Sequence record: PQ249397
From: Escherichia phage Pu-Krd-SF3
DNA: 64,000 nt
Reading direction: 5' to 3' (one strand)
The position numbers and the translations under genes were made by a program. Position 1 is the stretch's first letter; each line of letters starts with the position of its first letter. This document shows positions 63,195-64,000 of the stretch, piece by piece. The notes beneath the pieces were generated by a model. It was given only the letters and a program-made list of their open reading frames with translations, ran no database searches and was not told the origin of the DNA.

Positions 63195-63206
63195 TTTCAC
63201 AAAGTT

Positions 63207-63236
63207 GTTTACACGGGGTTTTAGTTGTGATACTAT
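63207..63236 (+). promoter_or_regulatory. Early promoter module 1 of the internal-protein array
   Basis: GTTTAC at 63207-63212, about 18-bp spacer, TACTAT at 63231-63236; followed by GGAGAATAAAATG. Confidence 0.55.
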
Positions 63237-63272
63237 TACCCTATCAAAACAAATGAGTGATTGGAGAATAAA

Positions 63273-63545
63273 ATGAAAACGTATCAAGAATTTATTGCTG
63301 AAGCTACTTTTAACGAAAAAGTAAAAATTAGCAAAGCTGTCAAGACTTTGATTGCTGACATCAATTACCTATATGATATTGATTTAACTGACTATGTAAC
63401 AGTTGGTAACAAACGTAACTTTTTCGTGTTTGACATCTCTGAACTTGACCAGAATCAAATTAACAACATTGAGCGTTTTGCTAATGATAAGGGTCTTCGT
63501 CATGAGTCAGCGGGTTATAAAAAATACGCAATTTATTTAAAATGA
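63273..63545 (+). CDS. Internal-protein-like small protein with capsid-targeting N-terminus
   Basis: 90 aa from ATG (track starts on TTG at 63261); N-terminus MKTYQEFIAEA is the T4 internal-protein capsid targeting sequence as recalled. Confidence 0.65.
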   Translation: MKTYQEFIAEATFNEKVKISKAVKTLIADINYLYDIDLTDYVTVGNKRNFFVFDISELDQNQINNIERFANDKGLRHESAGYKKYAIYLK

Positions 63546-63575
63546 GTTTACTTTTAAATAGGGTTGTGGTACTAT
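63546..63575 (+). promoter_or_regulatory. Early promoter module 2 of the internal-protein array
   Basis: GTTTAC at 63546-63551, 18-bp spacer, TACTAT at 63570-63575. Confidence 0.55.
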
Positions 63576-63605
63576 TATCTCATCAAAATTAATTAGGAAA
63601 ATAAA

Positions 63606-63914
63606 ATGAAAACATTTAAAGAATTTATCAATGAAGCGGCTGCGCCAAAGACATTCGTTATTAATACTCAGACGAGTCTTGACGATGAGTATGCAGAGGC
63701 AATTCTGAAGTCACTTGCTAAGAACGGCGTTGAAGTAATCGCCTCGGACTTTAAGAAAGGGGCTTCCGAGATGTTTATTTCTATAACTAAAGGATCTAAA
63801 GCTAAAATCAAATCATCATTCGGAGTTGCTCGTACCGATCAAATCGACAATCATGACTTTAAACAAACTGGTGCTAAACGGCAGAACACAATTGCATCAC
63901 GCGGAATAAAATAG
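63606..63914 (+). CDS. Internal-protein-like small protein, second cassette
   Basis: 102 aa; N-terminus MKTFKEFINEAAA is a variant of the capsid targeting sequence; Lys-rich. Confidence 0.55.
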   Translation: MKTFKEFINEAAAPKTFVINTQTSLDDEYAEAILKSLAKNGVEVIASDFKKGASEMFISITKGSKAKIKSSFGVARTDQIDNHDFKQTGAKRQNTIASRGIK

Positions 63915-63926
63915 TTTATAAAAACA

Positions 63927-63956
63927 GTTTACTTTTAGATAGGGTAGTGATACTAT
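63927..63956 (+). promoter_or_regulatory. Early promoter module 3 of the internal-protein array
   Basis: GTTTAC at 63927-63932, 18-bp spacer, TACTAT at 63951-63956; 3' part identical to module 1. Confidence 0.55.
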
Positions 63957-63984
63957 TACCCTATCAACTACAGAGGAGAATAAA

Positions 63985-64000
63985 ATGAAACGTTGTGAAT
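63985..64000 (+). CDS. Start of a further promoter-led ORF (MKRCE...), truncated by the window end
   Basis: ATG 8 nt after GGAGAA; only 5 codons visible. Confidence 0.3.

Follow-up and report, generated by a model that had tools for sequence, protein, structure and literature searches.

Ip9 and Ip7 cassettes at the IP1 locus of a T-even phage, Escherichia phage Pu-Krd-SF3

Which proteins are encoded by the short, promoter-led genes at the end of the 64,000 nucleotides of Escherichia phage Pu-Krd-SF3 (sequence record PQ249397) analysed here as one window, and are they internal proteins (IPs), i.e. proteins that are built into the phage head and delivered into the host together with the DNA? 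An earlier note had described positions 63195-64000 of the window as an array of such cassettes. The region is the IP1 hyperplastic locus, with two autonomous cassettes, ip9 and ip7, flanked by 57B (Acb1) and trna.4. Taken as a whole, the reading of this region as an IP1 locus with ip9 and ip7 cassettes, whose products are packaged, injected and, by analogy with known relatives, neutralise host nucleases, appears to us highly probable.

The placement follows from both the neighbourhood and the proteins. In a megablast search of positions 62700-64000 against GenBank phages, Escherichia phage Pu-Krd-SF4 matched over the full length at 100%, and many Tequatrovirus genomes matched at 95-98.5% (793 records matching at least partly). 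The source of the window is a Tequatrovirus, i.e. a T-even, T4-like phage. On the plus strand, the genes follow the order 3-1-57A-57B-ip9-ip7-trna.4, which is the frame found in T4, T2 and RB32 and sets the two small genes within the IP locus. In Pu-Krd-SF4, both small open reading frames (ORFs) are annotated as 'internal head protein', and a third ORF, encoding a hypothetical protein of 60 amino acids (aa), is followed by the tRNA cluster.

The first of the two ORFs encodes 90 aa starting with MKTYQEFIAEA and the second 102 aa starting with MKTFKEFINEA, just as the earlier note had read them. Over the first 10 codons they share the leader consensus MKT[YF][QK]EFI[AN]E, followed by Ala. For T4 it has been reported that residues 1-10 of IPIII are enough to direct a protein to the head, with residues 4 and 7 serving targeting and residues 8 and 10 cleavage, and that each IP is present in about 300 copies per head (PMC9026906). 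For comparison, IPI, IPII and IPIII of T4 were taken from NC_000866. Residues 1-11 of Ip9 are those of IPII and IPIII, and the leader of Ip7 has F4 as in IPI and keeps F7, so that the targeting sequence is present in both proteins. The gp21 motif L/I-x-E likewise stands at residues 8-10 of both, i.e. I-A-E↓A in Ip9 and I-N-E↓A in Ip7, and Ip9 contains a second I-S-E motif at residues 55-57. Since the leader, as in IPIII, and the cleavage motif are strictly kept in all T4-like Ip9 homologues, packaging of Ip9 would appear to be under selection. Position in the IP1 locus, leader with gp21 motif and the full-length family matches given below all bear out the class assignment of the earlier note, i.e. 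head-targeted internal proteins.

Beyond the leader, each protein can be named. Ip9 is 97% identical to Ip9 of RB32 and 94% identical to that of RB15 over its full length, and it matches the PHROG 'internal head protein' family phrog_7673 from end to end at 3.7e-55. Ip7 is 100% identical to Ip7 of phage T2 over 102 aa and 99% identical to that of RB32, with an end-to-end match to another 'internal head protein' family, phrog_2667, at 5e-41. The 102-aa product, which had been described as not placeable, is therefore Ip7. Homologues were found in 199 (Ip9) and 283 (Ip7) phage records, in both cases at full length down to ~45-50% identity and with invariant motifs kept. After the predicted cleavage, mature Ip9 (Ip9*) would have 80 aa, 9.3 kDa, an isoelectric point (pI) of 8.2 and a net charge of +1, and mature Ip7 (Ip7*) 92 aa, 9.9 kDa, a pI of 9.65 and a net charge of +5. 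With 12 Lys among its 92 residues (13%), predicted Ip7* is a basic protein and as Lys-rich as had been claimed.

Of the profile and structure-prediction searches proposed in the earlier note, the former led to known PHROG families, and the AlphaFold2 model of Ip7 (predicted local distance difference test, pLDDT, 74.5) has a confident core at residues 12-82 that forms a beta-alpha-beta-beta-alpha-beta ferredoxin-like sandwich. Its C-terminal 20 residues (83-102; positions 63852-63911 of the window) are basic and predicted to be disordered, with a pLDDT <50. In alignments this tail is among the best-conserved parts of the family, the RQNTI motif being kept down to 53% identity, and such conservation despite predicted disorder suggests a short linear binding motif. 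An exhaustive HMMER search with mature Ip7 against 1.84 billion cluster representatives returned three clusters, all of them Ip7 or an Ip7 fusion, so that beyond the IP loci of T4-like phages no relatives of Ip7 can be detected. In Escherichia phage OLB35, a 77-aa 'ip7 protein' (P0014) is a fusion of Ip7 (residues ~29-72) with Ip9 (residues ~59-90) that lacks the leader; this chimeric ORF probably arose in the IP locus by deletion or recombination.

Neither protein resembles the characterised T4 proteins beyond the leader. The earlier note had named identity of both products to IPI, IPII or IPIII as a refutation; on checking, the likeness ends at the leader, and past that region neither Ip7 nor Ip9 is similar to IPI, IPII or IPIII or to the other. 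No homology of the mature bodies or folds to mature IPI (IPI*) was found. Scans of both proteins with Pfam, NCBIfam and PADLOC gave nothing or sub-threshold noise, and a sequence search of the PDB gave no meaningful relative, the top match being a designed ankyrin repeat protein (DARPin) at E = 0.022. The predicted folds of both proteins are generic, with confident folded cores.

What makes cassettes of these genes is the module in front of each. In the window, GTTTAC-N18-TACTAT has three exact matches, always on the plus strand. Allowing up to one mismatch raises the number to six, whereas the expectation from shuffles is 0.45 and a count as high as six was seen in 0 of 100 shuffles. The exact copies, at 63207, 63546 and 63927, lie ~30-40 nt upstream of their ORFs, and each has a Shine-Dalgarno/ATG leader and then a small ORF behind it, as stated in the earlier note. 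Read alternatively as TTTAC[A/T]-N17-TACTAT, with a TG that precedes the -10 hexamer by two bases, the modules fit the early-promoter consensus of T4 and PST, TTTACW-N17-TAYWAT (PMC4122927, Comeau et al. 2014), and would accordingly count as early promoters of this type. The three upstream regions have a mean column identity of 77%, with invariant GTTTAC, GTG-TACTAT and GGA-AATAAAATG blocks. As for the near-identical leaders reported before, GGAGAATAAAATG does precede ORFs 1 and 3, whereas ORF 2 has GGAAAATAAAATG, which differs by one base. Not all three modules lead an internal-protein gene: modules 1 and 2 serve ip9 and ip7, whereas module 3 drives trna.4. The ORF that starts at 63985 is a trna.4 homologue, begins with MKRCE... 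and has no head-targeting leader; T4 trna.4, starting with MKRCELIRNVAIAISASAFSF..., is small and hydrophobic and does not belong to the internal proteins.

Elsewhere in the window, one-mismatch sites at 4762-4791 (GTTTAC-N18-TATTAT) and 7782-7811 (with TAGTAT) share the same GTGATA extended -10 and are likely to be other T4-type early promoters. No intrinsic terminator was picked up between the cassettes by a generic scan, and neither late (TATAAATA) nor MotA-type middle promoters were found directly upstream of ip9 and ip7. The nearest exact late-promoter motif, at 62134 inside gene 1, is a candidate source of late read-through through 57A-57B-ip9-ip7.

The modules differ in their inverted repeats. 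RNA folding gave -16.4 kcal/mol (z = -2.84) for module 3, -13.2 kcal/mol (-1.3) for module 1 and -2.2 kcal/mol (+1.4) for module 2, i.e. a strong stem-loop in module 3, a weak or modest one in module 1, where the flanking repeat is GGGGT/ACCCT, and none in module 2. Many IP-locus modules, including the ipI and trna.4 promoters of T4, carry an inverted repeat around the TG-extended -10 whose arms co-vary between phages, e.g. GATAGGGTA...TACCCTATC, GATGAGGTA...TACCTCATC, GGTAGGACT...AGTCCTACC and GTGTAGGGAT...ATCCCTACAC; in a second register, the repeat involves AGGGT or GGGCT right behind the -35 box. In a set of 47 distinct modules, cognate arms gave a longest stem of 5.4 bp on average, compared with 3.8 bp when the 5' arms were shuffled and 4.2 bp when the arms were non-cognate. 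Because transcripts started locally would lack the 5' arm, only read-through RNA or DNA could form the structure. The repeat is probably the 'weaker AT-rich stem-loop' of earlier authors (PMC2839356) and may act as a structure in read-through RNA or, at the DNA level, in recombination.

In module 2 (window positions 63546-63605), the 5' arm AATAGGGTT is of the AGGGT type, and the 3' arm TATCTCATC together with the leader is that of the T4 ipI promoter. With arms from different promoter types, the stem is broken, and module 2 is a recombinant whose sequence points to crossovers inside the -10 region. In four more distant T4-like contigs (L006, L011, L022 and L037), the promoter module ~200-340 bp downstream of the 57B homologue carries a 12-bp inverted repeat, ATCTCCATTTGG...CCAAATGGAGAT, through which the stretch right behind the -35 box can base-pair with the Shine-Dalgarno sequence. 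Such an arrangement would sequester the ribosome-binding site in read-through transcripts and leave it free in transcripts from the local promoter, and resembles the control of T4 gene e.

Comparison between phages shows what these modules mean for the locus. Its polymorphism among T-even phages, mentioned in the earlier note, is plain from the contents of the 57B-trna.4 frame, which differ from phage to phage: ipI in T4, Ip5-Ip7 in T2, Ip5-Ip9-Ip7 in RB32, Ip5 and a 77-aa IP in Bas37 (KarlGJung), and Ip9-Ip7 in Pu-Krd-SF3. By blastn, our locus is colinear with that of RB32 minus the Ip5 cassette (96.4% identity), the junction lying inside the repeated module, and the RB32 record describes its genes as 'similar to RB15 and K3 Ip9/Ip7, flanked by 43 bp direct repeat' and as one that 'replaces ipI'. 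The alternatives in T4, T2 and Bas37 have only the promoter/leader modules in common with the window. Whole-cassette differences between related phages hence fall at the promoter/leader/N-terminal-codon blocks. Among 36 viral contigs recovered via 57B, 31 have one or more leader-bearing ORFs in the stretch retrieved, of many lengths and sequences and mostly within ~1.5 kb downstream of 57B.

One detail at this locus is new, i.e. the occurrence of the Ip9 body without a leader outside T4-like phages. By tblastn, stand-alone proteins with this body were found in the siphophage genera Kagunavirus (JSSK01_64) and Seuratvirus (KS_A3 CDS0075) (Table 1). Their alignments begin at residue ~17-19 of Ip9, they match positions ~19-20 to 90 of the phrog_7673 profile, and in-frame stop codons upstream show that neither has the head-targeting leader. 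The same domain lies within an 1124-aa protein of the 149-kb phage LHE287. The label 'internal head protein' in KS_A3, given by PHROG transfer alone, is probably wrong for a siphophage.

What, then, would Ip9 and Ip7 do? Each of Ip1, Ip2 and Ip3 of T4 blocks a GmrSD type IV enzyme of its own and gives no cross-protection, IPII and IPIII inhibiting GmrSD-ECOR21 and GmrSD-ECOR17 (PMC12373910), and Bas37_0260, a leader-bearing protein of the IP1 locus, inhibits McrBC (bioRxiv 10.1101/2025.11.20.689424). Since T4 Ip1-3 block GmrSD enzymes and Bas37_0260 blocks McrBC, a mechanism of this kind is the most likely one here, and we infer an anti-defence role of Ip7 and Ip9 by analogy. The cassettes would be transcribed early by sigma-70 from their own promoters, and late supply could come from read-through, possibly from TATAAATA at 62134 in gene 1. 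As with the T4 IPs, the leader would dock the precursors onto the scaffolding core of the prohead (PMC9026906, PMC3012670), gp21 would cut after Glu10 (I-x-E↓A) to leave Ip9* and Ip7* in many copies in the head, and both would be ejected into the cell with the DNA. Each mature protein might there inhibit, stoichiometrically, one host nuclease that attacks DNA with hydroxymethylcytosine (hmC) or glucosyl-hmC. As targets are known for only four members of the family, Ip7, which is also present in T2, and Ip9 are obvious and cheap candidates for a target screen.

Several observations weigh against this account. The searchable literature reports no target, virion presence, gp21 cleavage or injection for Ip7 or Ip9; the promoters directly upstream are of the early type only, though prohead assembly needs the proteins late; and mature Ip9, being near neutral, is borderline when compared with the classic basic IPs. 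In addition, the siphophage Ip9 bodies without a targeting leader suggest that Ip9 activity does not intrinsically depend on injection, and such homologues in unrelated phages offer a handle on whether its function needs injection at all. It is tempting to speculate, if with little confidence, that Ip7 and/or Ip9 neutralise a host defence other than type IV restriction of the GmrSD or McrBC kind. The body of Ip9, above all, may serve as a portable domain for counter-defence that is also found in Kagunavirus, Seuratvirus and the 1124-aa protein and that the 10-residue leader would have turned into an injected effector in T-even phages.

These same homologues are the starting point of another explanation, namely that Ip9 is a general accessory domain of phages for counter-defence or host takeover that acts when expressed de novo, the leader having been added in the T-even lineage and the early promoter, rather than an injected pool, supplying the active protein. 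JSSK01_64, KS_A3 CDS0075 and the domain inside the LHE287 protein would all fit, as would the early type of the ip9 promoter. However, T4 Ip1-3 also stand behind early-type promoters and yet act as injected proteins, and a leader identical to that of IPIII, together with the cleavage motif, in every T4-like Ip9 implies selection for packaging; we judge de novo action to be unlikely. It could also be asked whether Ip7 and Ip9, even if packaged, mainly fill the head or neutralise charge for packaging or ejection, with no specific anti-defence target. That mature Ip7 is basic and ends in a basic, disordered tail would suit such a task, as would the reports that, in T4 heads, Lys residues of IPs touch DNA phosphates and that IPs bind DNA at low salt (PMC3012670; PMC9026906). 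Mature Ip9, on the other hand, carries hardly any net charge, the RQNTI motif in the Ip7 tail is more than mere charge, whole-gene replacement between near-identical phages fits effectors in an arms race better, and all four relatives from these loci with known function are specific nuclease inhibitors, which makes a role of this sort quite improbable.

The modules, finally, could be mainly mobile cassettes for regulation or recombination, similar to the promoter-stem-loop (PeSL) elements, with small ORFs that are spurious or passengers of no consequence. The same module does stand before trna.4, a non-IP gene, gain and loss of cassettes map to the modules, and both the hybrid module 2 and the Ip7::Ip9 fusion ORF of OLB35 testify to frequent recombination. 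Inconsequential ORFs are nonetheless hardly credible in view of the full-length conservation of the proteins in 199-283 phage genomes, down to ~45-50% identity, and of the invariant motifs and confident folded cores in both; moreover, a role in recombination would complement a protein function and not exclude one.

The coordinates of the locus and its surroundings are given in Table 1. As 57B is Acb1, the IP cassettes adjoin another counter-defence gene. In many records this anti-CBASS (cyclic oligonucleotide-based anti-phage signalling system) cyclic-nucleotide phosphodiesterase is still labelled 'RNA ligase' or 'hypothetical'.

Table 1. Features in and around the IP1 locus of Pu-Krd-SF3 and relatives of the Ip9 body in other phages (positions refer to the window unless preceded by a contig name)
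Feature	Position	Strand	Basis or remark
Gene 3	61111-61722	+	ORF listing
T4 late-promoter motif TATAAATA, exact match, within gene 1 and ahead of 57A	62134-62141	+	Sole exact plus-strand copy past 60000
Gene 1, deoxynucleoside monophosphate (dNMP) kinase	ends 62497	+	ORF listing
57A	62497-62739	+	Pfam GP57 at 2.6e-50
57B (Acb1), anti-CBASS phosphodiesterase; conserved left border of IP1 locus	62739-63194	+	Pfam Acb1 PF23474 at 2.6e-60; named 57B in RB32, T2, T4
Promoter module 1, -35 GTTTAC(A), TG-extended -10 TACTAT	63207-63236	+	Exact pattern; sigma-70 scan
ip9 Shine-Dalgarno GGAG	63263-63266	+	Read in sequence; leader GGAGAATAAAATG conserved
ip9, 90-aa internal head protein precursor	63273-63545	+	ORF listing
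ip9 leader, residues 1-10	63273-63302	+	Predicted gp21 cut after Glu10
Promoter module 2, directly 3' of ip9 stop codon; hybrid without stem-loop	63546-63575	+	Exact pattern
ip7 Shine-Dalgarno AGGA	63595-63598	+	Read in sequence; leader as in T4 ipI
ip7, 102-aa internal head protein precursor	63606-63914	+	T2 Ip7 identity, phrog_2667
ip7 leader, residues 1-10	63606-63635	+	Predicted gp21 cut after Glu10
Promoter module 3, drives trna.4	63927-63956	+	Exact pattern; same module before trna.4 in T4, T2, RB32
Inverted repeat/hairpin around module 3 -10, GATAGGGTAGTG-ATAC-TATTACCCTATC	63938-63965	+	RNA fold; compensatory variants in other phages
trna.4 homologue, predicted membrane protein, 60 aa; right border of IP1 locus	63985-64000, cut at window end	+	Full coding sequence in PQ759884; trna.4 annotated in T4, T2, RB32
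JSSK01_64, Kagunavirus JSSK01, 72 aa	L044:2507-2725		50% identity to Ip9
KS_A3 CDS0075, Seuratvirus KS_A3, 74 aa	L045:2492-2716		44% identity to Ip9
1124-aa protein of phage LHE287, with Ip9-body domain at residues 937-998	L047:888-4262	-	phrog_3867

The system as such is known, and what is given here is its correct reading: names and annotations already exist for both genes, and publications of 1994, 2010 and 2014 have described the architecture and what it means in evolutionary terms. According to Repoila et al. (1994), as cited in later papers (PMC12373910, PMC3012670, PMC2839356, PMC4122927), a conserved leader motif is common to ~10 IP ORFs, and the names Ip7 and Ip9, now 30 years old, go back to the same work as relayed by later papers and GenBank notes. 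The locus is a textbook case of injected-protein cassette shuffling in T-even phages and holds nothing new in itself.

The closest counterparts are the Ip genes of RB32, RB15 and T2, which are the same genes in the same locus and order, with the same flanking repeats; in RB32, an Ip5 cassette precedes Ip9-Ip7, and its lack is the only difference in Pu-Krd-SF3. IPI/IPI* of T4, the injected inhibitor of GmrSD from E. coli CT596, occupies the same 57B-trna.4 slot behind the same type of promoter and leader, and T4 ipI and ip7 match in the mRNA leader and the first 7 residues (MKTFKEF). IPII and IPIII of T4 share with Ip9 the first 11 residues and the I-A-E↓A motif, but are encoded at the second IP locus near gene e and have bodies unrelated to that of Ip9. 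Bas37_0260 of phage KarlGJung lies at the IP1 locus and has the leader MKTYQEFIAE, as does Ip9; with its different, 77-aa body it is neither Ip7 nor Ip9. With the PeSL/IP promoter-stem-loop cassettes (PMC2839356, Arbiol et al. 2010; PMC4122927), the locus shares early-promoter and Shine-Dalgarno/ATG modules that flank variable ORFs and mark the indel junctions. In PST, the repeat lies upstream of the promoter (PMC4122927, Fig. 3 legend), whereas in Pu-Krd-SF3 the repeat, where present, brackets the -10 box.

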